Shown piece by piece: positions 18,001 to 33,214 of a stretch of DNA of 64,000 bases. Each line of letters opens with the position of its first letter. The stretch's first letter is position 1. A program made the translations under genes and the position numbers. The notes under the pieces are model-generated. The model did not search any database, was not told where the DNA came from, and worked only from the letters and a program-made list of their open reading frames with translations. This DNA is from Candidatus Omnitrophota bacterium (GTDB taxonomy: Bacteria; Omnitrophota; Gorgyraeia; 2-01-FULL-45-10): NCBI GenBank assembly GCA_026387175.1, contig JAPLME010000011.1, positions 1,856-65,855 of the forward strand. Direction: 5' to 3'.

Positions 18001-21000
18001 GATAACCTTGGTTACCGCACCCCGGCTTACACAGGGGACAAGACGGTGGTCTTCTCAGACGCCGGGCTTTCCGCGGATCAAATCGCGCCTAAAGCCAAAG
18101 ACAAGAATAACGTGTCTATAGTTTTTGGTACCGGCACCACGATCGCCTTCACAAACGGAAGAGGCACAAGCACTATTACCCTGTATAAGAAAGAGGTGGT
18201 GCTGATAAAAGCGACCGTTGGCGCTATTACCACCGCCGATAATTATTCCCTGACGGTAACCGTTAATCCGGATGTGAAGGCTAAGCTGGTCTTCACCACA
18301 CAGCCGTCCGCCACCGGCATTATCAATAGCGCTTTAACCCAGCAGCCCGTCGTAGTCATCAGGGACCAATACGGCAACCGGACCGCGGATACGGATGAAA
18401 TCCAGATTAACGCGTCGACCGCCGGAATATTTTTTAATCCTGCCGCCGGCACGTTATCGGCGACTTCTAACCCGTTGGCCGCGGTAGACGGAGAAGCGGT
18501 ATTCGCCGGGGTTAAATACAACATCGCGGAGACGATATATATATATGCAAGTTCCGGTAATCTTGCCGGCGCCTATTCCGGGGCTATCGAGCTTAGCTCA
18601 GGCGTGTCCACTACAGTGGAGGCTGCCGCCCAGCCGCAGGCAAGCTTCCCGCTCATTCCTACGAATGACATCGAGACCGAGAAGTTCACTGTCCTGAAAT
18701 TTAAGATTAAAGACGCCGGTGATGACGGGACTCCTACTCTGATAGACAGAATAAAGATAGCCATTACCGGCACGGCCCAGCCGAGCGCGTCGACCGATAT
18801 CGCCTGGGCGGAATTAAGGGCGAATAACGGGGGAGACCATCAGGTTACTTTTGTTGCCGGGCCCTCAGGTTTCGAGGTTGACGGCTCCACCACTTATATC
18901 GTTTTCGGAAACGAACCTGATGCCCGCAGCGATTCGACCCTGGGCGCAATAGCGGCCGACGGTACGATACCGGATGGCGGCGAGATAGAATATACGGTAA
19001 AGATCTATATGAAACCCTCGAAGTTGACCGCCACGGACAAACAGGGCTACAATTTCACTACGAATGAGTCGCTCATCGGTGTAGATATGGGCGTATCGTC
19101 GAGGATGACGACAGACAGCGGGAAGATAACGCCTGTTGTCGGGCAGATCACGGTGAATGTATCGAATTTTGAGATCGTGGATCAGACCCCGCCTAATAAT
19201 GCCGCGATCAACGTTATCGCGGGCATCGCGTCTTATCTCCAGGTAAGGGCCACTGATAGCAATAAGAATATAGACATAGACTATGCCGGCGTGAAGAGCC
19301 TTATCTTCTCGGGATTGAGCTCGATAAACGGTTATACCCCCACGATAGGAACCACGACTAAGGTAACCTTTGGCGCCCCTACTTCAATAAATTTCGTAGC
19401 GGGCCAGTCATATAATTTAACAGGTACCGCGGTTGCCTTAACTGCTTATGCCAAAGGCACGGAAAACCTCAGGGCAGCGGATTATAATAAAACTCCGCCG
19501 CCATACGGCGTCTTCCCCTGCGCGGTGACGGTGGACAGCACCACGGCAAACAGTATAGGGCTAGCCGCAGGCAACAACCAGAGCGGATTGGGAGGGCGCG
19601 CATTGTCCAATCCTTTAGCGGCTATCGTTCGCGATCTTTACGGCAACCCCGTTAATTCCGGCACAGCCGTAACTTTCGCGGTATCGAGCGAGCCTGCCGG
19701 CACAACAACTCACGCCGGTTTGGATACACCCACGACTTCTACCGGCTCAAACGGCCAGGCTTCCACTCATCTTACTCTGGGCAACGCTAAAGGCACATAT
19801 CAGGTAACGGCAACATCCGGCTCGCTTGCCGGATCTCCCGTTACCTTCAGCGCCTCCGCCCGCGTCCCGGCGACACTATACATATTTGGCGGCAATCACC
19901 AGTCGGCGGTTGTGGCCACTCAGCTGCCGCTCGCTCTTGTGGTCCAGCTTTTAGATAGCGAGACTATCCCTCAGCCTATCGCGGGTGAGACCATAAACTT
20001 CGCGATAAAGGCCCAACCCACCGGCGCGGGCTCTTTCCTGTCAAGCTCTACGGCTGTCACTGACGCGGAAGGCAAGGCTCAGGTACCTCAGATCCTATTC
20101 ACATTGGGAATGATAGCGGGAACTGACGCTTATGAGGTCAGGGCGACTTACTCGAATTTAACGCCGGCTGATTTCACTGCCACCGCTGCCCCATCGCCGG
20201 CTTATAAGGCGGTTTTGGACGGCCCGGCGTCCGTGAATGCGGGTATTGTCGCCACGTTCAGTATAAATATTAAGGATACCTACGATAACGCGAGCACCAT
20301 TGCCACAACACCTATGGCATTTAATATTACCGCCACTCCGTCTCTGGGGGCGTTTTACAGCGATGCCGCGTGTACGAGCGCTCCGATCACTACGATGACC
20401 GTTCCGGGCGGAAGCAGTACAGCGACGTTCTATTTCAAAAGCTCCGTAACTGGAACCGCTAACATTGCAGCTACCACTACAGATGTCAGATTGGATGCTG
20501 ACCATCGGGTCGGTTCCATCACCGGCTTCACTGTTATGCCGGAAAGCCTGCATCACTTTACAGTTACCGCGGCAAATACGGACCCGATGACAGTAGGTGA
20601 GCCAAGGACGCTCAGCATAAAAGCCCGTGATATATATGATAACGTGAAAACCGATTTGAATGCCACTTTTAATGTAACATTCTCCGGTGCCACCGTCTCT
20701 CCGTCTCCCTCGAGCGCAGCGCTGGGCACGGCGCCGACCTGTTCGGGCCACGGCAGTGAAGCCGTAGGCGCTAACATAACAGGCACACCCGTGGCGTTTG
20801 GCCAGAGCACAAGCATAAGTTTCGCCAATGGCGCGGCAACCACCATATTTACGCCATATAAGGCCGAAGCAGCGCAGATCACAGCGACCTCAGGCATCAC
20901 TACGCCGACTCCTTTAAGTTTAACGGTAAAACACGGCGCCGCGCACCATCTGAAATTCCATGATAATATTCTCAGCCCCCAGACCGCGGGCACAGCCTTT

Positions 21001-24000
21001 AATTTTGATACGACCCTGGACGCGGTGGACCTGTACTCGAATATCTGCGATGGGGCAAACCTTGCGCCGGCCTATAACGGTACCGGCAAGACCATCGGCT
21101 GGCCGCTGGTCGATGCCGCGACAGGCAATTCCGGGATAGTTAACGGCCCTGAAACCGGCACCGATGCTTACACCAACCCGGTCGACTTCACAAGCGGCCG
21201 CTCGACCACGCCGCTTAGCGCCACGCTCTATTACGCGCAGACTATTAAGATAGCTCCAAGCGTTACCGGGTTAAGCGCCGGAACCCCGTCCAATAGTATC
21301 GTCGTGCGCCCGGCTGTGCCGAACAGGATCAGATTTACCCAGCAACCGTCCACATCCTGTTTAGCTAATCAGACGCTGGGACAACAGCCATGTGTAGCCA
21401 TCTCTGACCAGTATGGAAATATCTGCGTAAATACCCCTGGCCAGATAACGTTAAAGGCCTCTACTACCCGCGACTCTTATACGTCGGTTATCAATGGTGT
21501 ACTCCGTCCAGCCAGCGGCCTTTTTGTAGCTACGTCAGGCGGTGTGGCGACATTCACAGGCGTGAACTATACTTACCCTGAAATAATATATCTCAGGGCC
21601 CAGGCGTCAGTATCAGGTTATCCATACATTGCCGATATCTATTCTAATGGAATAAATGTGGTCGCGGGCACGGACCTGACCGTTTCCGCGGTATCCGCCA
21701 ATCCCACAGTCTCATCCATAGCAAACGCGAGCACCGATAAAACGGCGGTATTCGCGTTTAAGATCACTGACGCGGGCACTGACGGCCTGGTCGGACTGAT
21801 AAAGAAGATCGTGATCAATCGTTCAGACGCTTATGAGGCGCTTGACTGGACACAATACATAAAAGACGCGGTCCTGAGCGACGGCACAGTTGAAATAGCC
21901 GGCGCTATAGAAGCGAACGCTATCACCTTCGGCACGGGAACCGCGAATATATATACTGTGCCGAATAACGCCAATAGGACATATACGCTCAGCATTACCA
22001 TCAAGAACTCACTGCCCGCCGGAGCGGATGGAAAGATCCTTGGATTTACGATCAATGCCCGTGACGATATAACTCTTAATGACGCGGGCACTTCAGTGTT
22101 CGCGGACGTGGTTGACCCGGTTACCGCCGGTTCAGCCATTGATGTAGTAGCTACCAACCTTGTGATAAACGGCGACTCTAATATGGATGCCGGCACGCCC
22201 AAGAATATAACAATTACGGCCAAAGACAAGAATAATAATATAGATAAGGATTTTGATGATCACGGGGTAGGGACGAGGGTTATATTTTCGGGCGCTTCCG
22301 TAGTGCAGTCGGACAGGGACTATGGGCCAACCTGCACAGATTATACCGGATCCGGTAAAGCATTCGGCGAACCGACGAGTATATACTTTGCCTCCGGCGT
22401 CAGCACATCTACGATCACTATGTATCTATATAAGGCAGAGACCGCCACCATCTTGGCCTCGGCCGCGTATTTGGGCCACCAGGTGGTTTCCAGTTCCACC
22501 GGCCAGGGCAGGCTGATGGTTACAGTCAGAGGCGGCACCGGCTCCCAGCTCTCCTGGAGCACCAAGCCGGCAGTTAAAGCGGTAGCCGACGCCCCATGGA
22601 AAGCATTCATCGTCGCGGTAATCGACGCTTACGGCAATACCGCTTCGGATGACAGGGAGATAACAGTGAGTATTCCAGACGGCTTATCGCTCTCTCCCGG
22701 TGCTTCCAATAAGGCCACGGCCAACGGAGGGGTAGCCACCTTCGATCATTATGCTGTTCGCGCTCCCGCCGACGCGGCATATCCTAAATATTTTACCGTG
22801 ACAGCTTCCGCCGGAGGTATTTCTACGCCGGAGTCCGACCAGGTCACCCTTGATAAAGAGTACAAAATTTATATAACGGTGAAGGATACAACCAACGCGA
22901 CTACGCTAACCGGGTTTACTTTTACCGTTAAAGATACTAATGGCGTAGACAAGATACCTGAGACTACGCCGGCGCCGCCGTACCCATTTATGATATCTCT
23001 TCCTTATGGGACATATACCTTCATCTACAATCTGGATAAGTATGTTACCTTGAGCCCGGAGAAGGCTGTCAGCGTAGCGAGTGACGCCTCTGACGGCAAA
23101 TATGACAATGTTATTAACTGGACGGAGTATATGACCAGCCTCACTGAAGCTACGGCGGACTATCGTGTAATGTCGAGTTTTGCCTACGATGAAGATAATG
23201 AGTCGCTGGCGATCAGGATATGGCTGGAACGGCGCGGCAAGCTGATAGTGAATAATGACGTAAATAAGATGGGCCCCGCCACGATCGAGGCTTATGAGCC
23301 TAATGAGACAGCGCTCAACGTGATAAATATAGGCGCTCCCGATCCTAATCCCGACTCCGATGGCAATTATTCGACCATCGGCGCCACCTATAAAACTACA
23401 GTAGACAACATCCTGCTGTCCAAAGGCCCGTCTAATTTATTCGGCAAGGCGCTGGAAGCCGGAAAGACGTATTTCGTAAAATGCAAGATAAGTTATGGCG
23501 GCCTTGGCACCGACGGCGTTTACGGAAGCACATATGAAGGCGGCACGACGTTTACCGTGACGGTCAGCCAGAAACTGACTAAACAGATAATAACCCAGTT
23601 GGGTGTGGCCGCCGGCCAAACGGTGGTCGGCGAAATAGCCAAAACGCAGACTGCGGTAGCGGCTGTCAGCACCAGAGTGGATACTAAGGCTGCCGAGGTC
23701 GGCGCTAAAGTGGAGACGGTGGGCACTCAGGTGGCCGCCGCTAACGCTAACGTTTCCAATGTTGGCTCACAGGTCACTAATGTCCAGAGTTCGGCGGCAT
23801 CTATCCTGGAAGGCGTGAACACTACCTTGCCGACGAAGGTTGTGTCTGAATTGGCAAAAGGAGTCATGAGCGAGATGCTCACGCGTAATACGGTCTTAAG
23901 GGCTGACGACTCGATAAAGATAAGATACCGCACAGCGAGCGGACTGGTTCCTACAATGACTATATATAAGGAAGATGGCACCATTCTACCGGACTATAAT

Positions 24001-25032
24001 GGTGTGAAGATGAAAGAGATAAGCAACACAGGTATATACGAATACGAGGTTACTGCCAAAGAAGATTGGGGAGCAGGCGAATTCACAGCCGCATGTTCGG
24101 AGAGCACCAAAAATTCCAAGGACAGCATGACCTTAACTATCAAGGCGCTATATACCGCTGGCGCGGGTGTGCAGGAATCCGTAGATGCCGTCGGTGATGC
24201 TGTGTCGAAAGTCTATACGAGGCAGAAAGCTATCGAAGGGTTGCTGGGAAGTTCAGTCGATACGAAGGCCGCCACCACTATATTCGGAAAGGTTAACGGC
24301 CTTAACACTACCGTGGACAGCCTGAACCTTACCACGGTCTCCGCGGACGCGAAGAACGCCAGGACGAACGCGCAGAATGTCGCTAATGAGATCGAAAATA
24401 TAGTTAAGAGCGTGGGTGATATGAAGGCTCAAGCCGCGTCGCTGAAGGAGCTGTCGAACCAGCTCGAACTTATGAAGAGCAGCCTCAGTAAGATATCCCA
24501 GAACACCACCGTGATAACTTCAACCCCTGCCGCTCCCGCGACCACATCATTCGATGGCGGCGCCACTACAGCATCTTCCGGCGGCGGCACCGCTACAGCG
24601 GTATCCGGCGGCACCACTACTATAATCGCGAGCACGGCCGCCCCGGTGAGTACGACAGAGAGCGGTTCGATCATTATGCAGGGCACGCCGGGCGCGCCGC
24701 GGCCGGGTCTTTATTCCAAAAATTATCCGCCCGGCACTTATCGCACGAAGGTCTCTGTCAGCGAGGGCGCGGTCACGGTCGCGGAGTATAATGACGCGGG
24801 AAGCGTTTACAGCACAGAGCGTCGTATATACGACGGACAGAGCACGGTCGTTGTCTCGACTATAGGGAAGGCCACCGGCACGGGTACGGGCGCCGGCGGC
24901 AAGTCCGCTTCGGACATGACTAATCTTAACAACAGGGTAGAGGAGCTGACCGCGCTGGTTAAAGTTTTGACCAAGATGATTGAAACCACGAATAATAAAC
25001 CGATCGTCGAGGGCTGGTTCGAGCAAGGGTAA
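1..25032 (+). CDS. Giant repetitive extracellular-type protein, 5'-partial (more than 8,303 aa in window). It contains PATR-like beta-helix segments, six Asp-box-like beta-propeller arrays, Ig-like domain arrays and a coiled-coil tail
   Basis: Frame 1 is open from base 1 (HNWFNGTAGNVYWTNASGDGKWSTAANWSTG...) with no stop until TAA at 25030-25032. The track's Met at 121 is internal, not the real start. The codon periodicity of the repeats is conserved. All antisense and off-frame ORFs inside are short. Composition is N/T/S/G-rich, with conserved Cys (KACPS, CPAPKL, DWCPE) pointing to an exported protein. Confidence 0.85.
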   Translation, partial: HNWFNGTAGNVYWTNASGDGKWSTAANWSTGVIPQTTDSVVFNATSTTNCSVNQAATVTNLTLDTGYTGTVTLGATSGQDLTVTNSIAINTNGGILVDNGRVVNFKNVAIVSESNHLNSTGNWKQTASGNISAYYPEAFNSLELASGVTATLTNSISVRKVILGSNATITGNTSYRLWISPTADNFITQGTGSNISLPIHITGITSNINQGALNVSGAVFLRDSNNKILTMTGDWNIGTLTIWGTNATGSVVTIDTNGNNLTITGDLAISNGAVNYANQQLGKILFKTGNHTITGDVYILGQGQYTHGYIDFGSSTVNVGGNLDFRYASVTPGTSTVNLTGATTANIYSIVDYTYKDATLDNAVLNTAPFYKLTSTVAGKTVKFEAGKTVTIANNLNLAGTGTGINLLTLNSTTSGTAAKLNVASGATVTGMNYLSVKDSDASSGKGIVASNSTNVSNNTNWFFGAAGSNYWVNNSGDGKWSTAANWSTGSVPTSADNVVLNSASASNCSFDTGVANTTVASLTLDTGYTGTLTLAQGITVTGTLKVTQGTFDAATYNVNAANFTSTGILARTLNLGTGSTWTISGNWDSSGGNITVNPGTSTVTLTGDGTVKACPSVTTFYNLSAAASGMTTTIARDPSKNMWVAGGWGVNNYFAYSSDGITWTGLGTNTCLTTVHNICGNGSKFVAVGTGPSSIAYSTNGITWTGLGTSIFSGNGAFGVCWNGSKFVAVGHGANTIAYSYDGIAWAAAPGSTNIFSINANGADICWNGSKFVAVGDGTNTIAYSSDGINWTGLGTSIFSSYGKSVAWNGTRFIATGSGNSTLAYSSDGITWVGLGTSIFSSYGWGVAWNGTRIIATGAGTNTIAYSSDGITWVGLGSSIFITFGGGICWNGSKFVAGGQSPGSAYSTDGITWTSGGVPMAVGYGVCSIPAPKLVPPILSDDIKVSNNLTLGGGTLTRNGTDQIALTLTSATPTVTLGGSTISSGTIIRYAPAAGSGATTVTIPGGAYSGAKIEAYTKLNYSVAQPQGAVTYQLGGSITSLANLNIYADVGLPATTFSLVNGSNNYNLTSNSLTLGKDEVTNGSVTFNSGSGTVALPSLTNLVPSTNNSGLHTLNLNTSTWNVAGDWDTSGNNIILNPSTSTVNLTDNGILKTNPSTTSFYNLSCAVTGKTTTVARDPSKNMWVAAGEGTNSLAYSSDGITWVGLGTSILSYRGRGVAWNGTRFVATGAGADSLAYSSNGINWTGLGSSIFSGTGRYVAWNGTRFVTVGTGANSIAYSSDGTNWTGVTTTSIFSAYGYGIAWNGTRFVATGSGTNNSIAYSFDGITWTGLGTSIFSSSGTGIAWNGTRFVAVGSGTNSITYSSDGITWTGLGKSIFSVNGYDVAWNGTRFVTVGTGTNCIAYSSDGITWTGLGTSVFSSYGYSIGSCPAPKLTPPVLSDDIPVLNTLTLGGGTLTRNGTDQVALTLRKDTGNFLVLNNSTISNNAIIRFAPLANASSPKTVSIPGGDYGTAQVEAYVQTNNAVAQPQGAISYQLAGNIAGANSLNIYADSNLSTTFGLNSYNLYTATPGLLYLGKDCAQGAVTFNSGAGAVTLAATPLSSIVADNAGSHTLNMNSSTWNISGDWCPEGLTSGTSSSLSVAPSTSTVNITGTGTTTIYGSKTATPSTPFNNLYTPVGGLTDKTIKVNAGSTLQIAGILGLRGQGESSPLNFQSTTAGTAANLNVLGSTANMQYLNVTDSNASGGKKILACSSTIDTYSLNHNWVNGIVGNVYWTNASGDGLWSTAANWSTGAVPVSTDSVVFNATSTTPCSVNQAATVTNLTMDTGYTGTVTLSATSGQDLTVTGSITISTNSGTLVDNGRTVNFKNVSIAYENTPVHLTSTGNWKMISSGTIFGPQDSSKINSLELAAGVTANLLTNCTVNIRNLILGNNSVLTGYYMIIVPTTNNFITQGTGATISATLEICPGDMNQGALTTSGPVKITWGANRTLTMTGDWNIGGYLMVFGSSSFGTTGMMTLDTNGKNLTVGGDLQLGNSDSSYANDFLGKILFKNGTHTIGGKIFVMNGNTPSTCYTHGYFDFGQSTVNVGGNLDFRCASVTPGTSTVNLTGTTAATIYSIVDYAYKDTILDTPVLNTAPFYNLASSAASKIIKFEAGKTVTVANNLSLAGASGNLLTLNSTTAGTAANLNILGTATGMNYLSVKDSNASGGKGIITYNSTNVSNNTNWFFGTAGNNYWLNASGDGLWSTPANWSTGIVPVSGDNVYFNTTSTSDCSFDTGATNTTVASLTLDTNYTGTLTLAQGITVTGTLKVTQGTFDAATYNVNAANFTSTGALARTLNLGTGSTWTIAGNWDSSGGNITVNPGTSTVTLTGTGTVKACPSVTTFYNLSAAASGKTTTIARDPSKNIWVATGVGANTLAYSSDGTNWTGLGSSIFSGNGYGAAWNGTHFVATGYGTNSLAHSYDGIIWTGLGTSIFSTQGLGICWNGTKFVAVGEGTNTIAYSSNGITWTGLSSSIFSVFGDGVAWNGTRFVAVGYGTNSITYSPDGITWTGVTGKSIFSDYGMNIAWNGTRFVAVGQGTNSLAYSSDGIIWIGLGTSIFSTSGRGVAWNGTRFVAVGWGTNSIAYSSDGITWTGLGYSGLSSHGNSVAWNGTSFVAIGLGTNNIAYSSDGITWTGVTGTSIFSVNGVGVASCLAPKLTPPILSDGIKITNGLTLNGGTLTRNSTDQVALSLTSNTPTLTLGSSTISNSAIIRYAPVATSGATTVTIPGGAYSGAKIEAYSKTNYGVTQPQGSITYKLGGSITSAANLNIYADVGLPSTTFSLVNGASNYNLTSTSLTIGKDEVTNGTITFNSGSGTVALASLTNLVPSTNNSGLHTLNLNTSTWNVAGDWDTSGNNIILNPSTSTVNLTGSGTLKTSPNTTSFYNLSCAASGKTTTVARDPSKNIWVAAGQGTNSLAYSYDGINWVGLGINIFAINGYGACWNGSKFIVVGQGTNTLAYSSDGINWTGLGTSIFSTRGYGIAWNGTRFVAGGGGVNFLAYSSDGTTWTGLGTSVFSTAGYGVAWNGTCFVSVGSGTNSIAYSSDGITWTGLGTSVFSTAGNGVAWNGTRFVAVGYGTTSPGTNSIAYSSDGITWTGLGTSIFSTGIGYGVAWNGTRFIATGGGTNSLGYSSDGIIWTGQAVFLSQGNGVCWNGSKFVAVGYAGGTNSIAYSSDGIIWTGLGSSIFSYYGRSVCSSSAPKLTPPILSDDIPVLNTLTLGGGTLTRNGTDQVALTLRKDTGNFLVLNNSTISNNAIIRFAPLANATSAKTVSIPGGDYGTAQLEAYVQTNNAVDQPQGPISYQLAGNIAGANSLNIYADSNLSTTFGLNSYNLYTATPGLLYLGKDCARGAVTFNSGAGAVTLAATPLSSIVADNAGAHTLNMNSSTWNISGDWCPESQTSGTSSALSVVPGTSTVNITGTGATTIYGSKTATPSTPLYNLYTPSGGLVDKVIKVNAGSTLQIAGTLRLQGQNSGSPLYFQSTALGTPASLNLQGSAVSMQYLVVKDSDATSGKKILAYDSTIDTYSLNHNWIGGTVGIVYWTNASGDGLWSTAANWSTGAVPVSTDSVIFNVVSGSSPTSNCSVNQAVTVANLTLDTGYTGTVILSSTSGQDLTVTGSININTNGGALNDNGRNVNFVNASIVNEGNRLYSNGNWKMTANGNIKNANGGNIFNKTFEVGAGVTATLTSDIWTKGLILGNNAVVTGGSTIVFYYPPNDFIAQGAGSVISSTIDIDLSGNRSQGALTTTSSVNFYWHTATLTMTDNWHIGGYLSIYSGSSGATAILDTNGKNLTVDGNLYLGNTVYYGQILFKTGTHTIGGNMYVNQSGSPSHGYFDFGSSTVNVAGNVDFRYASVKPGTSTIVFTGTNAATIRALTSDDTSFDALSLNNTAPFYKLTSTVAGKTINFEAGKTVTVANNLTLAGTGMGANLLTLNSTVAGTTANLNVAGTATGMNYLSVKDSDASIGKGIVAYNSTNVSNNTNWYFGASGNNYWLNASGDGKWSTPTNWSTGIVPTLGDNVYFNTTSTSNCSFDTGVVNTSVNSLTLDTGYTGTLTLAKNITVTTALTVTQGTFNAATYNVNAANFTSTGALARALNLGTGSIWTISGNWDSSGGNITVNPGTSTVTLTGDGTVKACPSVTTFYNLSAAASGKTTTIARDPSKNIWVAGGYNPNSAAYSVNEGVNWTKSSSLASILDQACQGIAWNGTRFVAMGSTSNSIAYSSDGVTWIAAPNSKNIFSTRGYGIAWNGTRWVGVGGGINSIAYSSDGIIWTGLGTISTNIFSIYGTNIAWNGNRFVAVGNGTNNTLAYSSDGITWTGLGTSVFSSNGRGLAWNGTRFVATGSGTNSIAYSSDGINWIGLGTSVFSNNGTSVAWNGTRFVATGSGTNSIAYSSDGINWTGLGTVSTNIFSIYGTNIAWNGNRFVAVGYSGGGTSVAYSSDGIIWTAATVSGIFSGDGYAIASSPAPKLTPPILSDDIKVSNALTLGGGTLTRNGTDVVALTLTSATPTVTLGGSTISNNAIIRYAPVAGASDTIVNIPGGAYSGARIEAYTKRNGSITQPQGALTYRLGGSITSAASLNIYADVGLPATIFNLYDGSNSYNLASSGLILGKDEVTNGNITLNSGTGTVALNSLTGLVPSTNNSGSHILNLNSSTWNVAGDWDTSGNNIVLNPGTSTVNLTDTGTIKTSPNTTSFYNLSAAANGKTTTVARDPSKNIWVAVGNGANTIAYSSDGITWTGLGAGILSSYSYGVCWNGSKFVAVGQGTNSIAYSSDGIIWTGVTVHSVFSTNGRGVCWNGSKFVAVGQGTNSIAYSSDGIIWTGLGTSIFSYGYNVCWNGSKFVAVGGSINSIAYSSDGIIWTGLGAGIFSPYSHGVCWNGSKFVAVGEGNNTIAYSSDGITWTGLGYSIFSPYGHGIAWNGSKFVAVGGSINSIAYSSDGITWTGLGTSSFLYGRGVCSILTPKLTPPVLSDDIPVLNTLILGGGTLTRNGTDQVALTLRNNDSDSLALNSSTISNNAIIRFAPPAPGAMDGVAEPITVTIPAGNYGTAQVEAYAQFNNSVDQPQGVISYKLAGDITAAGSLNIYADAGLPATTFSLNDGANNYNLYSSTPGLIYLGKDCAQGAVTFNSGSGTVNVTSFGIIPNNAGSHTVNLNSSTWNISGDWQPEGEGNSASNLNAGTSTFHYIGTGAATLYGLKSGPNINTMPFYNLTSTAAGKTLNFEAGKTVKIANNISLTGGSSKMLLRSTSTGSYWNINVAPAATATFMSYLDVKDSDASSGNTIAATACIGSTQHNLNWTFSTGGAAIWIADGAKNWSDATAWSTVSVPTTTGTAEILFTGDHKGACTINAAANVKSINILSGYTGTITQAGTVTAGSGGYAQADGVFNCGGQAVNVNGPFTLSGGTFDAANSTIAITGGNINLSGGAFAPVASTVTLSGTCAINSDIPALNIMTFNPGTYTIAAGKTISAPANSLLSFAGTGTSNMVTLRSSAPGTRWNLANASGSTVTPVYTDVMDSNASNLISAANSKDSGNNINWVCTGTLTNASVLPASLVAGVSGNVTVNFTTVNPIPNNGKIVVTLPSNFTFNSGGATAVSGAPTGIDGNFSVSVEGPSAIITRSGGTSAGAGAKSIILTNIKNPTAPCTTGTYSIATRTSADASIDSLTGIAGSVITAASVTSWDLNMNAGTLTLNFNAGITAASLAATGITIQNTIASPSASYTLTDSTTASSNGTAITITLSDTDRNTIKATANLAKAQNSSCLSITSAAFMDLYNNPITAITGSLAMNVTNYTTDITAPGLSSWTLDMNTHMVEMTFNEPVAISSFDQTKFTIQDDSGHAYTLAASNNTYIEDPYDNMLAGGYAIGSTNNMKLRIKLTTKDFNALVDDANIAKARSSSYLVIATESGVRDKATLANALAAIPATNAASYTANSVVAAQFYVTTSSYATATTLTAGTFKDIVIKAYDNLGYRTPAYTGDKTVVFSDAGLSADQIAPKAKDKNNVSIVFGTGTTIAFTNGRGTSTITLYKKEVVLIKATVGAITTADNYSLTVTVNPDVKAKLVFTTQPSATGIINSALTQQPVVVIRDQYGNRTADTDEIQINASTAGIFFNPAAGTLSATSNPLAAVDGEAVFAGVKYNIAETIYIYASSGNLAGAYSGAIELSSGVSTTVEAAAQPQASFPLIPTNDIETEKFTVLKFKIKDAGDDGTPTLIDRIKIAITGTAQPSASTDIAWAELRANNGGDHQVTFVAGPSGFEVDGSTTYIVFGNEPDARSDSTLGAIAADGTIPDGGEIEYTVKIYMKPSKLTATDKQGYNFTTNESLIGVDMGVSSRMTTDSGKITPVVGQITVNVSNFEIVDQTPPNNAAINVIAGIASYLQVRATDSNKNIDIDYAGVKSLIFSGLSSINGYTPTIGTTTKVTFGAPTSINFVAGQSYNLTGTAVALTAYAKGTENLRAADYNKTPPPYGVFPCAVTVDSTTANSIGLAAGNNQSGLGGRALSNPLAAIVRDLYGNPVNSGTAVTFAVSSEPAGTTTHAGLDTPTTSTGSNGQASTHLTLGNAKGTYQVTATSGSLAGSPVTFSASARVPATLYIFGGNHQSAVVATQLPLALVVQLLDSETIPQPIAGETINFAIKAQPTGAGSFLSSSTAVTDAEGKAQVPQILFTLGMIAGTDAYEVRATYSNLTPADFTATAAPSPAYKAVLDGPASVNAGIVATFSINIKDTYDNASTIATTPMAFNITATPSLGAFYSDAACTSAPITTMTVPGGSSTATFYFKSSVTGTANIAATTTDVRLDADHRVGSITGFTVMPESLHHFTVTAANTDPMTVGEPRTLSIKARDIYDNVKTDLNATFNVTFSGATVSPSPSSAALGTAPTCSGHGSEAVGANITGTPVAFGQSTSISFANGAATTIFTPYKAEAAQITATSGITTPTPLSLTVKHGAAHHLKFHDNILSPQTAGTAFNFDTTLDAVDLYSNICDGANLAPAYNGTGKTIGWPLVDAATGNSGIVNGPETGTDAYTNPVDFTSGRSTTPLSATLYYAQTIKIAPSVTGLSAGTPSNSIVVRPAVPNRIRFTQQPSTSCLANQTLGQQPCVAISDQYGNICVNTPGQITLKASTTRDSYTSVINGVLRPASGLFVATSGGVATFTGVNYTYPEIIYLRAQASVSGYPYIADIYSNGINVVAGTDLTVSAVSANPTVSSIANASTDKTAVFAFKITDAGTDGLVGLIKKIVINRSDAYEALDWTQYIKDAVLSDGTVEIAGAIEANAITFGTGTANIYTVPNNANRTYTLSITIKNSLPAGADGKILGFTINARDDITLNDAGTSVFADVVDPVTAGSAIDVVATNLVINGDSNMDAGTPKNITITAKDKNNNIDKDFDDHGVGTRVIFSGASVVQSDRDYGPTCTDYTGSGKAFGEPTSIYFASGVSTSTITMYLYKAETATILASAAYLGHQVVSSSTGQGRLMVTVRGGTGSQLSWSTKPAVKAVADAPWKAFIVAVIDAYGNTASDDREITVSIPDGLSLSPGASNKATANGGVATFDHYAVRAPADAAYPKYFTVTASAGGISTPESDQVTLDKEYKIYITVKDTTNATTLTGFTFTVKDTNGVDKIPETTPAPPYPFMISLPYGTYTFIYNLDKYVTLSPEKAVSVASDASDGKYDNVINWTEYMTSLTEATADYRVMSSFAYDEDNESLAIRIWLERRGKLIVNNDVNKMGPATIEAYEPNETALNVINIGAPDPNPDSDGNYSTIGATYKTTVDNILLSKGPSNLFGKALEAGKTYFVKCKISYGGLGTDGVYGSTYEGGTTFTVTVSQKLTKQIITQLGVAAGQTVVGEIAKTQTAVAAVSTRVDTKAAEVGAKVETVGTQVAAANANVSNVGSQVTNVQSSAASILEGVNTTLPTKVVSELAKGVMSEMLTRNTVLRADDSIKIRYRTASGLVPTMTIYKEDGTILPDYNGVKMKEISNTGIYEYEVTAKEDWGAGEFTAACSESTKNSKDSMTLTIKALYTAGAGVQESVDAVGDAVSKVYTRQKAIEGLLGSSVDTKAATTIFGKVNGLNTTVDSLNLTTVSADAKNARTNAQNVANEIENIVKSVGDMKAQAASLKELSNQLELMKSSLSKISQNTTVITSTPAAPATTSFDGGATTASSGGGTATAVSGGTTTIIASTAAPVSTTESGSIIMQGTPGAPRPGLYSKNYPPGTYRTKVSVSEGAVTVAEYNDAGSVYSTERRIYDGQSTVVVSTIGKATGTGTGAGGKSASDMTNLNNRVEELTALVKVLTKMIETTNNKPIVEGWFEQG
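1921..2785 (+). repeat. Propeller-like blade array 1a, about 7 blades of 42 aa (approximate bounds)
   Basis: Repeated blocks of the form IAYSSDGITWTGLGTSIFS..G.GVAWNGTRFVAVG.GTNS. The array ends at a conserved C-PAPKL-PP linker. Confidence 0.6.
3541..4285 (+). repeat. Propeller-like blade array 1b (approximate bounds)
   Basis: Same 42-aa blade periodicity. The array is preceded by the TTTVARDPSKNMWVA motif and ends at SCPAPKLTPP. Confidence 0.6.
7210..8075 (+). repeat. Propeller-like blade array 2a (approximate bounds)
   Basis: Same blade repeat family. Confidence 0.6.
8825..9705 (+). repeat. Propeller-like blade array 2b (approximate bounds)
   Basis: Same blade repeat family. Confidence 0.6.
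12601..13500 (+). repeat. Propeller-like blade array 3a (approximate bounds)
   Basis: Same blade repeat family. Confidence 0.6.
14255..14985 (+). repeat. Propeller-like blade array 3b (approximate bounds)
   Basis: Same blade repeat family. It contains near-identical consecutive blades (CWNGSKFVAVGQGTNSIAYSSDGIIWTG occurs twice). Confidence 0.6.
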
Positions 25033-25053
25033 TCTAAAAACGAGGATTTATAT

Positions 25054-26415
25054 ATGACAAGACGAAGAATGAAAATCATAGGCATATTATTGCTGCTTAT
25101 TTTCATCTCAAGCGCGGGTTACGCGGATGTTAAGCTGAAGATAGCCATTGTCAACCCATCCCCGACAGATAGACAGACCTCACCCATAAGGTACGACCTT
25201 CCTAAGGGTATCGGCCCGGAACAGGTTATCGATATAGGCAAGCTGGAGATGAAATATGATTTTGACAAGGGCAATTATTACCTTGCCGGCACCGTGACGC
25301 TCGAAGCGTCGGAGAGGAAGGTCCTCGAGATAGCGATCCGCGATGTCTGGGGCATCCCGGAAAAAGACCTGGATAATTTAAAGAGCCACACGGATATGTT
25401 GGTGAAAAGGCTGAAGGATACAAAGCATTTCAAAGCCGGCGCCGAACTCTCTAAAAATATTATCAAACAGCTGGACACCATGATCACGGAAGAGAAAACG
25501 GCCGGCGCGAATACGCGGGAGCGTATAAACCAGTACTATGAGAATGAGGTGGTCCTGAGCGAGGTCAAAGAAAATATAGGCATGCTCGAAAACCTGGTCC
25601 TTGACGCGGGCGGCGTCGTAGAGGACAGGGTCCAGATACCTACCACCCTCGCGATTCCTTTAAGGGGGGAATCTCTCTCGAGCGACAAAGATATTATCGA
25701 ATTAAAAATAAAGGCGGTTAACCCATCGACAAAAACAAAACAGATCACGCCGGTAAGATATTCCCTGCCGGCCGAAATAAGCCCCAGATATATAATGGAC
25801 AGAAACGGCCTTAATATGGCCTACGATTTTGATAAACAATGCTTTTACCTTTACCAGGACGATTTGGAGCTGGGCCCGGAGCAGTCCAAGGAGTATGTAG
25901 TAAAGATAAGAGACATATGGAATATATCAGATACAGAATTGGAAGCGCTCAGGTCGCATACCGATAATATAATGCTGCTTCTCCAGGGCACCGACTATTT
26001 AAAGCAAGCGCAGGTCTCCGCGGATAAGGTCAGCGCCAATATTGACGATATAGTCAGGACTCAAGCCGCCAAGGTTTCGGCCATGGAACATATAGCCTAT
26101 TACCGCGATAATGTAAAGTTACTGCGGGACGTTAAAAAGATGATAGCCGAACTGGAAAAGCTTGTCAGCCAGAGAGGTGTGACTGCCGGCGTTACGGTGA
26201 AGTGGCCGGAAGAAGGCGGAGGAGGGCCGCTGGCAAGAAGGGCCAAGGGCTATAAAGGGTTGGACCTGATAGCTAAATCCATCTTCAGGGGGCAGGCCCC
26301 TACGGTTGCCACCACCTGGAAGGTAATTTTTGTAATAATCGGTTTCATAGGAATTATTGCCGCATTTTTCTTCGCGGTATGGTATATTCAACTGAAGAGG
26401 GCGGGGAAGAAATAA
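25054..26415 (+). CDS. Hypothetical exported, membrane-anchored protein with an internal tandem duplication of about 200 aa (453 aa)
   Basis: GAGG RBS 8 nt upstream. It lies 22 nt after the giant ORF stop. N-terminal signal peptide (MTRRRMKIIGILLLLIFISSAGYA) and C-terminal TM (VIFVIIGFIGIIAAFFFAVWYI + RAGKK). The two halves align (DVKLKIAIVNPSPTDRQTSPIRYDLP versus IELKIKAVNPSTKTKQITPVRYSLP; LDNLKSHTD versus LEALRSHTD). Confidence 0.6.
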   Translation: MTRRRMKIIGILLLLIFISSAGYADVKLKIAIVNPSPTDRQTSPIRYDLPKGIGPEQVIDIGKLEMKYDFDKGNYYLAGTVTLEASERKVLEIAIRDVWGIPEKDLDNLKSHTDMLVKRLKDTKHFKAGAELSKNIIKQLDTMITEEKTAGANTRERINQYYENEVVLSEVKENIGMLENLVLDAGGVVEDRVQIPTTLAIPLRGESLSSDKDIIELKIKAVNPSTKTKQITPVRYSLPAEISPRYIMDRNGLNMAYDFDKQCFYLYQDDLELGPEQSKEYVVKIRDIWNISDTELEALRSHTDNIMLLLQGTDYLKQAQVSADKVSANIDDIVRTQAAKVSAMEHIAYYRDNVKLLRDVKKMIAELEKLVSQRGVTAGVTVKWPEEGGGGPLARRAKGYKGLDLIAKSIFRGQAPTVATTWKVIFVIIGFIGIIAAFFFAVWYIQLKRAGKK

Positions 26416-26426: not shown

Positions 26427-26660
26427 ATGTTTAAAGCCACAATCGTAACTCCCAATAAAGTATTGTTCGATGGTGAGGCCTGGAGCGTTTTTTTGCCCGG
26501 GGCTACCGGTGAGTTTGAAATTCTGGAGATGCATAAGGCGATCGTGAGCCTTTTGCGTCAGGGAAATATTGTGATTAACTGGGATATAGAGATACCGGTA
26601 ACCAGCGGCGCGGTCAGGATGTCCGGCGATGAGCTGGTGGCGATAGTAGAGTCAGATTAG
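26427..26660 (+). CDS. atpC: F-type ATP synthase epsilon-like subunit, N-terminal beta-sandwich domain only (77 aa)
   Basis: MFKATIVTPNKVLFDGEAWSVFLPGATGEFEILEMHKAIVSLL matches the epsilon N-domain pattern (GEA..V.LPG..GEFGIL.GH). The start was moved from the track's 26379 to the ATG at 26427 to avoid overlapping the upstream gene. The protein lacks the C-terminal helical hairpin. Confidence 0.55.
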   Translation: MFKATIVTPNKVLFDGEAWSVFLPGATGEFEILEMHKAIVSLLRQGNIVINWDIEIPVTSGAVRMSGDELVAIVESD

Positions 26661-26662
26661 AG

Positions 26663-26689
26663 CAGCTTTCAGCAAAAAACTGATAGCTG
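26663..26689 (+). promoter_or_regulatory. Intergenic RNA stem-loop (10-bp stem with one mismatch, 7-nt A-rich loop) between atpC and atpF
   Basis: cagctttcag-caaaaaa-ctgatagctg. The same motif recurs after atpD. Confidence 0.35.
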
Positions 26690-26705
26690 TAACAAGGAGT
26701 CATAA

Positions 26706-27422
26706 ATGGTATTCCAACTAGTCGTAGTCCAGATAGTGACCTTCATCGCTATCGTCTTTGTGTTGAGGAAATTGTTATATTCCGAATCCGCCAAAGAGAT
26801 GCTCCGCTTGCGGAAGATCAAGGAAGAGACCGCGGTGAAGCAGAGAGAGCTGCAGCAAAAGATCGACGAAGCGCAGGATGCTTACAGCGAAAAGATCGCC
26901 GAAGCGGAACAGAAGACGCGGGCATTCCGTATTAAAGCGGAAGAAGAGATCGAGGAATTAAAGAAGAAGATATTGAGCAAGGCCAAAGAGGATGCCGAGC
27001 AGATAGTGAAATCCGCTTTCAATGCCAAAGAGAAGATCCGCGAAGAGATCGGCGAAGAGATGCGTAAGAAGGCGCCTCTCCTTGCCTCGCGGGTTTTTAA
27101 GGAAGTCCTTTCTCCGGAGGTCCAGGAGATGATGCATAAGGAATTAGTCAGGGATGTGATAGATAAGATAAGGAATACCGAGAAGACGGCCTTTAAGTCC
27201 AAAATCGAGAAGGGGGAGATCGTTTCGGCGTATCCTTTATCGAAAAACGATAAGCTCGTGGTGGAGTCTCTTATACACGATAGCCTCGGATACCAGATCC
27301 CTTTATATGAAACAGAAGACAGCCAGCTTGTAGCGGGCGTCCTTATCAAGCTGGGCACCATTTTAATAGACGGGAGCCTGAATAACAGGCTTAAACAGGT
27401 CGAGAGGGAGTTGGAATTTTAG
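26706..27422 (+). CDS. atpF: ATP synthase subunit b-like (N-terminal TM plus charged coiled coil) with a delta/OSCP-like C-terminus
   Basis: AAGGAG RBS. TM MVFQLVVVQIVTFIAIVFVL followed by a long E/K-rich helix. The C-terminus AGVLIKLGTILIDGSLNNRLKQVEREL resembles the delta C-terminal motif (G.....G....DGS....L). Confidence 0.55.
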   Translation: MVFQLVVVQIVTFIAIVFVLRKLLYSESAKEMLRLRKIKEETAVKQRELQQKIDEAQDAYSEKIAEAEQKTRAFRIKAEEEIEELKKKILSKAKEDAEQIVKSAFNAKEKIREEIGEEMRKKAPLLASRVFKEVLSPEVQEMMHKELVRDVIDKIRNTEKTAFKSKIEKGEIVSAYPLSKNDKLVVESLIHDSLGYQIPLYETEDSQLVAGVLIKLGTILIDGSLNNRLKQVERELEF

Positions 27423-27434
27423 AGAGGCGCTGAT

Positions 27435-27647
27435 ATGCGAAATCTTATAATAATTCTGGTGATGTTCGTTACGATACTCGGGCCCTCAGCGGTCATCGCG
27501 GCCATAGGCTTTGCCTCGATAAACGCTTTGGGAAGGAACCCGTCATCCGCTCCGAAGATATTAAGCGCGATGATAGTTTCCCTGGTATTTGCCGAAGCCA
27601 TCGCGGTGATCGCTCTTCTGGTATTGTTCCAGTTATTTGGGAGGTAA
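27435..27647 (+). CDS. atpE: ATP synthase subunit c (70-aa two-helix proteolipid)
   Basis: GAGAGG RBS. Helix-loop (GRNP)-helix architecture with a conserved carboxylate in helix 2 (VFAEAIAVIALL). Its position lies between the b and alpha genes. Confidence 0.7.
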   Translation: MRNLIIILVMFVTILGPSAVIAAIGFASINALGRNPSSAPKILSAMIVSLVFAEAIAVIALLVLFQLFGR

Positions 27648-27661
27648 GGCAAACCGCTATA

Positions 27662-29164
27662 ATGAAGACTGAATCTGTATCCATAGGGGAGATCGGGCGC
27701 ATAAAGGAGATCAAGAAATCTATCGTCACGATAGAAGGCCTTCACAACTGCATGCTGGGTCAGCTGGTGACGTTTACAGACGGCACTAAAGGTTTTGTGA
27801 TGGGTTTCAATGAAAACGAAGTCCTGGTGCTGCTTTTAGGAATTTCGAAGACATTAAAAGCCGGCAATGAAGTCTATTCCAGGGAAGAGTCCTTTAAGAT
27901 ACCGGTGGGAAATAATTTTTTGGGCCGTATCGTAAACCCGCTATGCGAGGGCCTGGACGGGAAGGGATACGTCAAGGAGGATTCTTTTGCCTATATATTC
28001 AGGGACGCGCCGGCGGTCCTCGATAGAGAGCCTGTCAATGAAATGCTGGTCACCGGGATAAGGATAGTCGATGCCACCATACCCATAGGTAAAGGACAAA
28101 GACAGCTTATCATAGGCGATAGAATGACGGGTAAGACATCGATAGCCGTCGACGCTATATTGAACCAGAAGGGTAAAGATGTCATATGCATATATTGCTG
28201 TGTGGGCCGTGACTACGCCTCGTTTGAAAAGGTCGTAGGCACTTTTAAAGAGAAGGACGCCCTCGATTATATGATAGTTGTGGCGGCTCTCGCTTCTTCT
28301 TCTATCGGAGAGCAGTATCTCGCCCCCTACGCCGCCGCGGCGTTGGGCGAATACTTCATGTACGCGGGCAAGAATGTCCTTATCGTTTTTGATGACCTTA
28401 CCAAACATGCGTGGGCATACAGAGAGTTGTCCCTTCTCCTGGAAAGGCCGCCCGGCAGAGAGGCTTATCCGGGAGATATATTTTACCTGCACGCTCAGCT
28501 TATGGAGAGAGGCGCCCGCCTGTCGTCACATAACGGCGGCGGCTCCATGACATTCCTCTCGATAGCGGATACCCTGCAGGGCGATATCTCCGGGTTTATA
28601 CCGACGAACCTGATCTCAATGACGGACGGGCAGATATACCTTAACTCCGCGTTATTCGGAGAGGGGTTCAAGCCCGCGATAGACATAGGGCTCTCCGTCT
28701 CGCGTATCGGCAGCAGGGTACAGTCGAAGACCTTAAGGGAATTGACGAAGAACCTCAGTTTAAAATATGTCCAGTACAGGGAGCTTCTGAAGACCACGAG
28801 ATTGAAGTCGGGTATCTCCGAAGATATGACCGGCCGCCTGAAGCACGGCGAGAAGATCGAAAGGATCTTCATGCAGGATAAGAACAGCCCGTCATCTCTG
28901 GCGGAGCAGCTTATCCTGTATTTCGCGCTTGAGACCGGGGCGCTCGATATCCTGTCGAACGAAAAGTGCGACTATTTCAAAAAAAATATATTAGCTTTCG
29001 CCAGGCAGGATATTCCGGCAGTGGTTGAGAACATGGAAAAAGGCGCCGAGATGACGGCCGAGGACAGGGAAGCTATTAAAAAATGTATAATGAATTTTAA
29101 CCATAAGTTGTGGGCATCCGAGGGTGAAACCGCGCCCATCTCCGCAGCCGAGGCCGCGGAATGA
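27662..29164 (+). CDS. atpA: F1 ATP synthase alpha subunit
   Basis: P-loop GDRMTGKTSIAVDAILNQ (alpha-type GDRQTGKT), N-terminal beta-barrel, 500 aa. Confidence 0.9.
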   Translation: MKTESVSIGEIGRIKEIKKSIVTIEGLHNCMLGQLVTFTDGTKGFVMGFNENEVLVLLLGISKTLKAGNEVYSREESFKIPVGNNFLGRIVNPLCEGLDGKGYVKEDSFAYIFRDAPAVLDREPVNEMLVTGIRIVDATIPIGKGQRQLIIGDRMTGKTSIAVDAILNQKGKDVICIYCCVGRDYASFEKVVGTFKEKDALDYMIVVAALASSSIGEQYLAPYAAAALGEYFMYAGKNVLIVFDDLTKHAWAYRELSLLLERPPGREAYPGDIFYLHAQLMERGARLSSHNGGGSMTFLSIADTLQGDISGFIPTNLISMTDGQIYLNSALFGEGFKPAIDIGLSVSRIGSRVQSKTLRELTKNLSLKYVQYRELLKTTRLKSGISEDMTGRLKHGEKIERIFMQDKNSPSSLAEQLILYFALETGALDILSNEKCDYFKKNILAFARQDIPAVVENMEKGAEMTAEDREAIKKCIMNFNHKLWASEGETAPISAAEAAE

Positions 29165-30048
29165 AGGCGCGGGAGATAAAAGAGGACCTCCTCTTCAATA
29201 CCGAATTCATGGGCCTTCTCGAAGTGATGAAGAATATAGCGATTTCTCAATTCCGGTCCCTTCAGAAGAAGAGGAGCAGGTTTATCCGGTTCACCCAGCT
29301 TTTGAACGGTTTTTTTCAGATGGTGGATATCAGGCAGGCCCCGCACAAGTTAATAAACCCAAAGACAGAGAAGAGGGCGATCGTATCGATAACCTCCGAC
29401 GAGGGCTTTATGGGGGACCTGAATTTTCAGGTCGTGGACGCCGCGATCATGAAAGGAGGCCCCGAATCCGCTGAGATTATCGTAGTAGGAGAGTCGGGGG
29501 TAAGGTATCTGAAAGATATGGGAAGAAAATTTACCGCGTTTAAAAACGCCGCCGACGCCGAAGCGAGACATACCGTCGCCGTGGAGCTGAAGAATTATAT
29601 CATGCGAGGCATCGCTGAAGACCGTTTCGGCAGGGTGTCCGTTTACTATCCTAACCCGATCTCATTCATGATCCAGAAAGTGGAAGCCGTGGAGCTTCTT
29701 CCCCTCACTGCCTTCTTTTCGCCGCAGGCGCAAGGCCCGGGATACGATCAGCAGGTGATAGTAGAATCGCCGGCGGAGGGCATAATAGAATACCTCGCCG
29801 AGGAATTTATCGAACAAAAACTGATGGAGCTTCTCGAAGACAGCAAGCTTTCAGAGTTCGCCGCGAGAGGCGCCCACCTCGAGCGGAGCGGCCAGGAGCT
29901 CGCCGAAAAACAGAAACGGCTCAGAGCCCAGTATTTTCACGCTTATCATGAAGTCATAGACAAAAATACCAGAGAACTATTTTCCTCGCAGATTATCATA
30001 AAGCGGAAGGCCAAAGAGGTATCCGCAGCGCTGAATCTTAAAGTATAA
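29161..30048 (+). CDS. atpG: F1 ATP synthase gamma subunit
   Basis: The ATGA start overlaps the atpA stop. The protein is 295 aa, sits between alpha and beta, and has the coiled-coil termini typical of gamma (C-terminus ...LNLKV). Confidence 0.8.
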   Translation: MKAREIKEDLLFNTEFMGLLEVMKNIAISQFRSLQKKRSRFIRFTQLLNGFFQMVDIRQAPHKLINPKTEKRAIVSITSDEGFMGDLNFQVVDAAIMKGGPESAEIIVVGESGVRYLKDMGRKFTAFKNAADAEARHTVAVELKNYIMRGIAEDRFGRVSVYYPNPISFMIQKVEAVELLPLTAFFSPQAQGPGYDQQVIVESPAEGIIEYLAEEFIEQKLMELLEDSKLSEFAARGAHLERSGQELAEKQKRLRAQYFHAYHEVIDKNTRELFSSQIIIKRKAKEVSAALNLKV

Positions 30049-31453
<1,405 letters not shown>

Positions 31454-31455
<2 letters not shown>

Positions 31456-33201: not shown

Positions 33202-33214
33202 CAAAAATCTACTG

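Follow-up and report, generated by a model that had tools for sequence, protein, structure and literature searches.

Introduction

In the bacterial phylum Omnitrophota, loci that combine a "symbiotic" type 2/3 F-type ATPase with genes of a type-4a pilus have been described (Seymour et al., 2023; PMC10066038). In the portion of that article on hand, giant open reading frames (ORFs) and ATPase/pilus loci are treated as separate symbiosis traits, and the analogy between these loci and the gliding ATPase of Mycoplasma mobile is already drawn. Here we describe a gene that stands directly between a giant ORF and such an ATPase operon in a 64,000-nucleotide (nt) stretch of DNA from a Candidatus Omnitrophota bacterium (assembly GCA_026387175.1, contig JAPLME010000011.1; the whole stretch is referred to as the window). 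The gene (25054..26415, + strand, ATG start) encodes a predicted bitopic membrane protein of 453 residues, designated here as the target protein. From its relationships to single-polypeptide homologs, it appears to be the split-off membrane anchor of the giant protein, i.e. a detached anchor module. The main text of Seymour et al. (PMC10066038), as far as it was available, makes no mention of this gene, of fusions between it and giant proteins, or of a giant ORF directly upstream. By its gene content the window locus is one of the symbiotic loci of that study, and its alpha subunit may belong to the symbiotic (type 2/3) clade rather than the respiratory one. As in those loci, genes of a non-respiratory F-type ATPase adjoin GspE/PilB, GspF/PilC and pilin-like genes, and the alpha, gamma and beta genes (27662-31455) lie within 10 kb of those for GspE, GspF and pseudopilins (31495-39972).

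Giant proteins of the "Archaeovorin" and dockerin types are known from the same phylum (West-Roberts et al., 2023, preprint 10.1101/2023.11.21.568195; 2026 preprint 10.64898/2026.06.07.730766). They resemble the window giant in being adhesin-like giant ORFs flanked by genes of type II secretion system (T2SS) or type IV pilus (T4P) type, together with parts of cyclic di-GMP (c-di-GMP) signaling such as PilZ and GGDEF domains. They exceed 30,000 residues and have many internal transmembrane (TM) helices, SecA-like domains and a secretion locus upstream, whereas the part of the giant covered by the window has no TM helix, the T2SS-like genes lie downstream after the F1-like ATPase, and the anchor is a separate gene.

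Atypical F-type ATPases beside surface proteins have also been reported in Mycoplasma. The Type 3 "F1-like X0" cluster follows immediately after the genes of the MIB-MIP surface proteins, which depend on it for their function (PMC3369863; PMC12994834), and its protein MMCAP2_0577 (87 kDa) has a signal peptide, two globular ectodomains and two C-terminal TM helices (PMC12994834). The window locus is similar in having an atypical F-type ATPase downstream of a surface protein, and a membrane protein with a signal peptide, two ectodomains and a C-terminal TM helix. It differs in that c, b and delta homologs are missing from the Mycoplasma clusters, where a 12-TM protein is found instead; the window keeps c-like and b-delta subunits and has no 12-TM gene. 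The Mycoplasma host is monoderm and the window organism diderm. MMCAP2_0577 and the target protein are partly alike in architecture, with two TM helices versus one, ~87 kDa versus 453 residues, and a position inside versus upstream of the ATPase cluster. In M. mobile, the surface proteins Gli349, Gli521 and Gli123 belong to a gliding machinery with a Type 2 F1-like ATPase (PMC7052211, PMC8406192, PMC11864180). These are likewise very large surface proteins with single-TM anchors that are thought to be moved by an internal F1-like ATPase, and the comparison is a functional analogy; unlike the window system, the M. mobile motor has no c-ring and consists of dimeric F1-like units arranged as a chain in the cytoplasm.

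Split and fused forms of the architecture

The giant ORF (1..25032, + strand) has no stop codon back to position 1 of the window, and the start of the gene lies outside it. The encoded protein of at least 8,343 residues is rich in Thr, Gly, Ser, Ala and Asn, and Pfam yielded only weak Big_1, LptD_N and Amnionless-like matches that give no functional clue. No TM-like segment was found in the 8,343 residues covered by the window, and a membrane anchor would therefore have to come from another protein.

In other Omnitrophota, a homologous module with its TM helix forms the C-terminal end of proteins of 1,200–6,650 residues. Among the best 150 representatives of the profile search described below, 15 have the module at the C-terminus of proteins of 584–3,612 residues, and a further member has 6,651 residues. 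In these fused proteins the signal peptide stands at the N-terminus and the junction is free of hydrophobic segments; the split form, in contrast, has acquired a stop codon, a ribosome-binding site (RBS) and a signal peptide of its own. The C-terminal region of the giant protein (residues 7628-8303; 23002..25029, + strand) is homologous to the stretch located just N-terminal of the module in the single-polypeptide relatives P0071, P0070 and P0092 (BLASTP E values of 3e-36 to 5e-20). When the giant tail was joined to the mature target protein, the resulting sequence aligned with the single polypeptide P0092 in one colinear BLASTP high-scoring segment pair with an E value of 4e-84. The alignment crosses the junction: ...KPIVEGWFEQG at the end of the giant and DVKLKIAIVN... 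at the start of the mature target pair with ...EPLVTSWLESG-SVKQRILVAN... of P0092, and the split point falls exactly between W(F/L)E.G and (S/D)VKLK. The fused proteins P0227, P0223 and P0335 (Candidatus Omnitrophica/Omnitrophota) are encoded directly upstream of epsilon, c, b-delta, alpha, gamma and beta genes followed by MshEN-GspE, GspF and Peptidase_MA_2. Because of the colinear alignment and the fused forms in the same locus slot, the gene pair in the window is taken as the two-gene version of one architecture.

The tail of the giant protein (24928..25029, + strand; NNRVEELTALVKVLTKMIETTNNKPIVEGWFEQG) corresponds to its last ~34 residues (NNK.EELTAL.K.L......NKP.VEGWFE..), which are kept to the stop codon, or to within two residues of it, in 21 of 22 other split loci. 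A docking tail would be expected to be conserved right to its end in this way, and the segment is a candidate docking motif that the anchor may bind. In two related loci (L019, 9950-10567; L020, 9953-10567), an extra single-module ORF of 205-206 residues is located between the giant ORF and a GGDEF-bearing anchor of 627-630 residues. This ORF could be the product of a frameshift, or the same architecture may be divided here in a third manner.

Conservation of the neighborhood

Related loci were gathered in three independent ways: an exact look-up of homologs, a genome scan with the family alignment, and a metagenome scan with the ATPase alpha subunit. Clustering at 90% identity gave 31 distinct module-bearing loci besides the window, of which 28 had enough upstream DNA to be assessed. 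The genes of an F1-like ATPase directly follow the module in 30 of the 31 distinct loci, with a gene order that varies in some of them, and T2SS-like genes come next after the ATPase operon. A large or giant ORF is present upstream of, or fused to, the module in 25 of the 28 assessable loci (22 split and 3 fused). In the split loci this ORF mostly runs off the contig end and reaches up to 3,327 residues within a contig, and in the three fused loci the module ends a protein of 3,070, 3,313 or 6,651 residues. Loci that were found via the symbiotic-type alpha subunit and had enough upstream sequence all contained both a large ORF and the module (12/12), and the close relatives of the window alpha subunit (52–90% identity) all occur in the same locus type. 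The ATPase/T2SS-like operon is the most invariant partner of the module, more so than the giant gene. The link between the anchor and the ATPase operon had gone unnoticed in an earlier note on this DNA, as had the GGDEF-fused variants described below.

Architecture and topology of the target protein

The N-terminal 24 residues (25054..25125) form a predicted Sec-type signal peptide with cleavage between ...SSAGYA and DVKL, in agreement with a hydrophobic segment at residues 5-28. Homologs share a consensus at this point, AxA before and D after the cleaved bond, and a cleavage consensus of this type is typical of signal peptidase I. Export by the Tat pathway was considered for the N-terminal sequence TRRRMK and rejected, as this sequence is not kept in homologs; Sec export is assumed.

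An AlphaFold2 model of the target protein, calculated from a 46-sequence alignment, has a mean predicted local distance difference test (pLDDT) score of 80.8. It consists of two repeats (residues 25-184 and 214-373), each of which is a beta-sandwich of ~7 strands followed by a three-helix bundle. In module 1 (25126..25605) the beta-sandwich spans residues 25-96 and the helical bundle residues 103-184, and the corresponding parts of module 2 (25693..26172) are residues 214-286 and 293-373. The two modules are homologous to each other, with 34% identity over 172 residues (BLASTP E 2e-29) in a region that spans IRDVWGIPEKDLDNLKSHTD and IRDIWNISDTELEALRSHTD. The modules are followed by a glycine-rich linker, a short helix (residues 401-411) and a TM helix (residues 418-452), the last of which agrees with the second hydrophobic segment at residues 415-448. 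The gene region for the TM helix, the cytoplasmic KRAGKK tail and the stop codon (26305..26415) encodes the family-wide motif (T)TW.II..I..F, which is found again in most of the divergent family. These features bear out the reading in the earlier note, made from the letters of the sequence, of a signal peptide, two homologous modules with a beta-rich part and then a helical part (the motif it quoted is present in both) and a C-terminal TM helix ending in KRAGKK.

The most conserved segment of the protein is a membrane-adjacent helix (residues 399-417; 26248..26304; GYKGLDLIAKSIFRGQAPT). Its majority-residue fraction is 0.79, compared with 0.71 for beta-sandwich 1 and 0.67 for the TM helix, and the ectodomains range from 0.60 to 0.71. 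The membrane-adjacent helix and the TM motif are conserved more than a passive anchor needs, which suggests a specific contact of the protein at or within the membrane beyond passive hydrophobic anchoring. Gene order and the conservation of the TM helix point to the membrane part of the ATPase (c-ring and b-delta) as the candidate partner. The window protein ends 6 residues past the TM helix and gave no match to PF00990 (GGDEF) in Pfam. The predicted topology can be fixed with a cytoplasmic C-terminus since homologs carry GGDEF domains right after the TM helix.

A domain family of Omnitrophota

A word-indexed search found 67 full-length homologs with 27–100% identity. One of them (P0001) is an identical protein from a metagenome-assembled genome (MAG), and all homologs among the 67 that carry an organism name are from Candidatus Omnitrophica/Omnitrophota. 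An exhaustive profile search of 1.84 billion cluster representatives returned 968 matches at E ≤ 1e-3, 341 of them at E ≤ 1e-30, and the entries with an organism name among the best 150 of the 968 are all from Omnitrophota. With a profile built from 40 divergent members, 31 proteins were matched, and the two named ones are from Omnitrophota and an unclassified "bacterium". Two MAG contigs carry labels such as "uncultured Planctomycetia". Since the protein has 67 full-length homologs and 968 representatives in the profile search, the gene is judged to be genuine and not a chance ORF. The window protein is assigned to this family by its full-length profile match, its TTW-type TM motif and its position directly upstream of an F1-like ATPase operon.

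The searches against known families gave no assignment, as the earlier note had supposed. Pfam and NCBIfam returned only coiled-coil noise and two chance-level NCBIfam matches to unrelated families (E > 0.2) for the target protein, and Pfam on 46 aligned homologs returned coiled-coil noise only, apart from GGDEF in six of them. A sequence profile search of the PDB with the target protein gave no match (best E 0.38). Foldseek with the full-length model found nothing in the PDB and BFVD at E < 0.001, and the top entries were generic beta-sandwiches with TM-scores of 0.1-0.15. Models of T2SS/T4P platform proteins (GspC, GspL, GspM, PilN, PilO and PilP) had no match at E ≤ 0.1 in the 46 family members. 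Known sorting and anchor signals for which Pfam or NCBIfam models were applied (LPXTG/sortase, PEP-CTERM, the type IX secretion system C-terminal domain and the autotransporter barrel) were not found in the target protein, and its predicted fold has no barrel. As for helpers of chaperone-usher or two-partner secretion, neither an outer-membrane beta-barrel nor an Ig-like chaperone fold nor a family match was found in the target protein. The sequence evidence is consistent with an undescribed domain family that is seemingly restricted to Omnitrophota.

Among the best 150 representatives, 121 are stand-alone proteins, 15 have the module at the end of a large protein and 12-14 have a C-terminal GGDEF domain. 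A GGDEF domain with an intact motif directly follows the TM helix in 6 of the 46 aligned homologs and in 8 of 26 distinct loci, so that such variants make up about 10-30% of homologs. They suggest that information on the state of the ectodomain can cross the membrane. The window protein and ~80% of the family have a cytoplasmic tail of only 6-40 residues without an output domain. The idea that the GGDEF domain stands in for the epsilon subunit was rejected, as epsilon is absent only in L003 and L007 and present in six other GGDEF loci. The family has at least one orphan branch, represented by P0178 (L070, 10001-11245), a divergent two-module paralog with a TM helix and without the TTW motif, which is encoded between TatD/SpoU and MutS.

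Gene borders and the downstream operons

The giant ORF ends with a TAA stop codon at 25030-25032. The spacer between the giant ORF and the target gene (25033..25053, + strand) is 21 nt long and contains a Shine-Dalgarno sequence, GAGGA (25042-25046), which sits 7 nt ahead of the target ATG. A scan for terminator-like sites or hairpins found none in the gap between the giant ORF and the target gene, nor in that between the target gene and the next gene. The placement of the gene just after the giant stop codon with a good RBS and no intervening terminator is as the earlier note described it. Its proposal of translational coupling does not hold as a conserved trait: the intergenic gap from the giant ORF to the module ranges from about -19 to 525 nt in other loci. 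Adjacency on the same strand, in turn, is supported as conserved across loci. A sigma-70-like site (24967-24996; TTGACC, an 18-nt spacer and AATAAT; 10/12 matches) is located within the end of the giant ORF, ~60 nt before the anchor start, and could be an internal promoter of the anchor-ATPase operon. The promoter scan yielded 9 sites against 5.0 ± 2.1 expected by chance, and this site, a mere consensus match, is not used as evidence.

The F1-like ATPase operon (26427..31455, + strand) begins shortly after the target gene. It encodes epsilon (26427-26660), a b-delta fusion (26706-27422), a c-like subunit (27435-27647), alpha (27662-29164), gamma (29161-30048) and beta (30052-31455), all on the + strand. 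A gene for subunit a was found neither in this operon nor in any related locus that was read. The c-like subunit retains the RNP loop and the Glu residue of helix 2 (FAEAIA), and the best PDB matches of the window alpha subunit are ordinary F1 alpha subunits. The gene order of the ATPase operon differs between subfamilies. Two tandem alpha-like genes directly follow the anchor in L044 (9965-12928), L072 (1841-4766) and L074 (11432-14339), while a single alpha-like gene comes first, before epsilon, in L004 (5630-7123) and L073 (7954-9435). The L003 locus contains mobile insertions: a nucleotidyltransferase/HepT toxin-antitoxin pair (9309-9945) separates the GGDEF anchor from the ATPase genes, and a GIY-YIG gene (15203-15499) separates beta from GspE.

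The T2SS/T4P-like cluster (31495..39972, + strand) comprises genes for GspE/PilB with an MshEN domain (31495-33201), GspF/PilC (33215-34480), Peptidase_MA_2 (34477-35253), a GspG-like pseudopilin (35255-35674), two minor pseudopilins (35649-36885), a GspK-like protein (36872-37900), a PilM-PilN fusion (37897-39414) and PilO (39427-39972), again all on the + strand. By its domain content (GspG, GspK) the cluster looks more like a T2SS than a type-4a pilus. The N-terminus of the GspE-like ATPase (31495-31650) contains two tandem MshEN-type c-di-GMP-binding motifs, RLGDILVEKGIITQEELNTALAEQ and ALGQILIRMGFVAERDMLQILAKQ, separated by a 5-residue spacer. The same GspE/PilB-like gene carries a C-terminal PilZ domain in L004, L009, L010, L071 and L073, and L009 and L010 have an extra stand-alone MshEN gene. 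Peptidase_MA_2 comes right after GspF/PilC in nearly all loci read and may process the pilins or the giant protein. Further downstream, LptF/G is encoded at 41444-42538, and the organism is considered diderm because of its presence.

Discussion

We favor, with moderate confidence, the view that the target protein is a detached anchor that couples the giant protein to the downstream ATPase/T2SS-like machine. Export through the Sec pathway and cleavage of the signal peptide would yield a periplasmic ectodomain of two modules. These two modules, each a beta-sandwich with a three-helix bundle, would grip the conserved C-terminal tail of the giant protein and in this way tether it to the inner membrane. 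The membrane-adjacent helix and the TM helix would place the tether at the F-type ATPase, which would be composed of the c-ring, the b-delta stalk and alpha3beta3-gamma-epsilon without subunit a. The tether would also lie at the T2SS-like pseudopilus system, in which the GspE-like ATPase bears MshEN motifs that bind c-di-GMP. In the GGDEF variants, the module may in addition report the state of the ectodomain or of the giant protein to the cytoplasm as c-di-GMP. Both the binding of the giant tail by the anchor and the contact of the anchor with the ATPase are inferred.

Several observations weigh against this view. In an AlphaFold2 prediction of the giant tail joined to the mature target protein, the tail helix had a pLDDT of ~72-76 and the PIVEGWFEQG segment one of <50, and no docking mode was supported, with the tail covered by only two sequences of the alignment. 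The earlier note had suggested structure prediction as one check and the question whether a homolog always follows a giant gene as another. The former gave a fold for the target protein by itself; as to the latter, a large or giant ORF lay upstream or was fused at 25 of the 28 assessable loci and was missing at the other three. L074 has the module, the ATPase and T2SS-like genes with only 116- and 520-residue genes upstream, L072 has the ATPase and lacks an ORF in its 501 nt of upstream sequence, and L070, the locus of P0178, has neither of the two partners. An adjacent giant gene is thus not a requirement for the module to function. The upstream part of L074 (1-9989) encodes a secretin, a TPR protein, a histidine kinase/response regulator pair, a CarboxypepD_reg-domain protein and, as the 116-residue gene, a lipoprotein-like product. 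The contact with the ATPase draws solely on gene order and the conservation of the TM helix. In a diderm host, a protein of more than 8,000 residues tethered to the inner membrane would still need a route to the cell surface, and the N-terminus of the giant protein, with any export signal of its own, lies outside the window.

Among the alternatives, the target protein might primarily be a membrane subunit of the F1-like ATPase, of "X0" type and standing where subunit a is missing, with the giant protein as a secondary cargo that is fused or adjacent in some lineages. The module directly precedes the ATPase genes in nearly all loci, including L074 and L072, the loci read have no subunit-a gene, the membrane-adjacent helix and the TM helix are the best conserved parts, and the Type 3 F1-like X0 clusters of Mycoplasma have a subunit of similar architecture (PMC12994834). 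A role in the ATPase is compatible with a role as anchor, but the fusions and the conserved tail point to a physical link with the giant protein in most loci. An ion path like that of subunit a cannot be supplied by a lone TM helix that has no conserved arginine within the membrane, the toxin-antitoxin pair separates the anchor from the ATPase genes in L003, and the paralog P0178 occurs without any ATPase. On balance we regard a primarily ATPase-related role as unlikely. The same GGDEF domains that fix the topology raise the question of whether the protein is instead a periplasmic sensor in a c-di-GMP pathway that governs the pseudopilus ATPase. The window form, which has no GGDEF domain, would then serve as a truncated co-sensor or regulate by way of protein contacts. 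A subset of the family does resemble membrane diguanylate cyclases, with a periplasmic domain, a TM helix and an intact GGDEF domain, and the neighboring GspE/PilB-like ATPase has two MshEN motifs, joined by PilZ in other loci. The window protein and most of the family, however, have no GGDEF or other output domain, the periplasmic domain matches no sensor fold or family that is known, and C-terminal fusion to giant proteins is unexpected for a sensor of free ligands. Such a function appears quite improbable.

The earlier note had proposed a dedicated partner of the giant protein, such as an anchor, chaperone or usher. The anchor part of this proposal gains support from the fusions and from the 25 of 28 loci with a large ORF, while the chaperone and usher parts do not. 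A chaperone, pilot or usher that aids secretion of the giant protein via the T2SS-like system and stays outside the final assembly would fit a gene that adjoins both the giant gene and the T2SS-like genes. Nevertheless, the protein has no beta-barrel, belongs to no known pilot or usher family and is anchored in the inner and not the outer membrane, and permanent fusion to the cargo in ~10% of the best 150 representatives fits a structural part rather than a transient helper. We consider a helper of this kind very unlikely. Finally, the giant ORF and the target gene could be one gene, with the in-frame TAA being a sequencing error or read through. The two share one frame in the window, with one TAA and 18 nt between them, and a single stop codon between giant and anchor is also seen in L005, L019, L024 and L073. 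Among 23 distinct split loci, 14 have giant and anchor ORFs that share a frame, where one third would be expected (P 0.006 if the loci were independent, which, being related, they are not). The excess could be a remnant of gene fission or hint at read-through. On the other hand, the target gene has its own RBS, ATG and signal peptide, and the signal peptide is position-conserved in homologs and absent at the junctions of true fusions. Moreover, the frames differ at 9 of the 23 loci, and at many loci the two genes lie 100-500 nt apart with several stop codons in the interval. The identical protein P0001 was annotated independently in a public MAG. A single gene is extremely unlikely on these grounds.

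A bolder version of the anchor reading sees the protein as the part that transmits force in a new motor-adhesin machine. ATP hydrolysis by the F-type ATPase, which lacks subunit a, would turn the c-ring, and the TM and membrane-adjacent helices of the anchor would engage the c-ring or the b-delta stator. Torque or conformational work would then pass via the periplasmic modules to the giant protein, for instance so as to extend, retract or reel it in while the cell attaches to prey or host cells, and the GGDEF variants would return load information as c-di-GMP to the pseudopilus ATPase with its MshEN and PilZ domains. We think this version distinctly unlikely; if it is true, the F1-like systems of Mycoplasma would have a counterpart in a diderm, and one whose coupling protein is defined.

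The novelty lies in a domain family that has not been described before and in a connection not previously recognized within a system that is known in part. As a detached anchor, the module family would provide a concrete physical link between two traits of Omnitrophota that have been reported separately, the giant surface proteins and the "symbiotic" F1-like ATPase/pilus loci, and it offers a parallel to the F1-like X0/MIB-MIP systems of Mycoplasma. The family may be used as a marker for such loci. In place of a vague co-occurrence, it leads to testable statements: the giant protein would be tethered to the inner membrane, the tether would be located at an F-type ATPase without subunit a, and in some lineages a diguanylate cyclase would sit on the tether.

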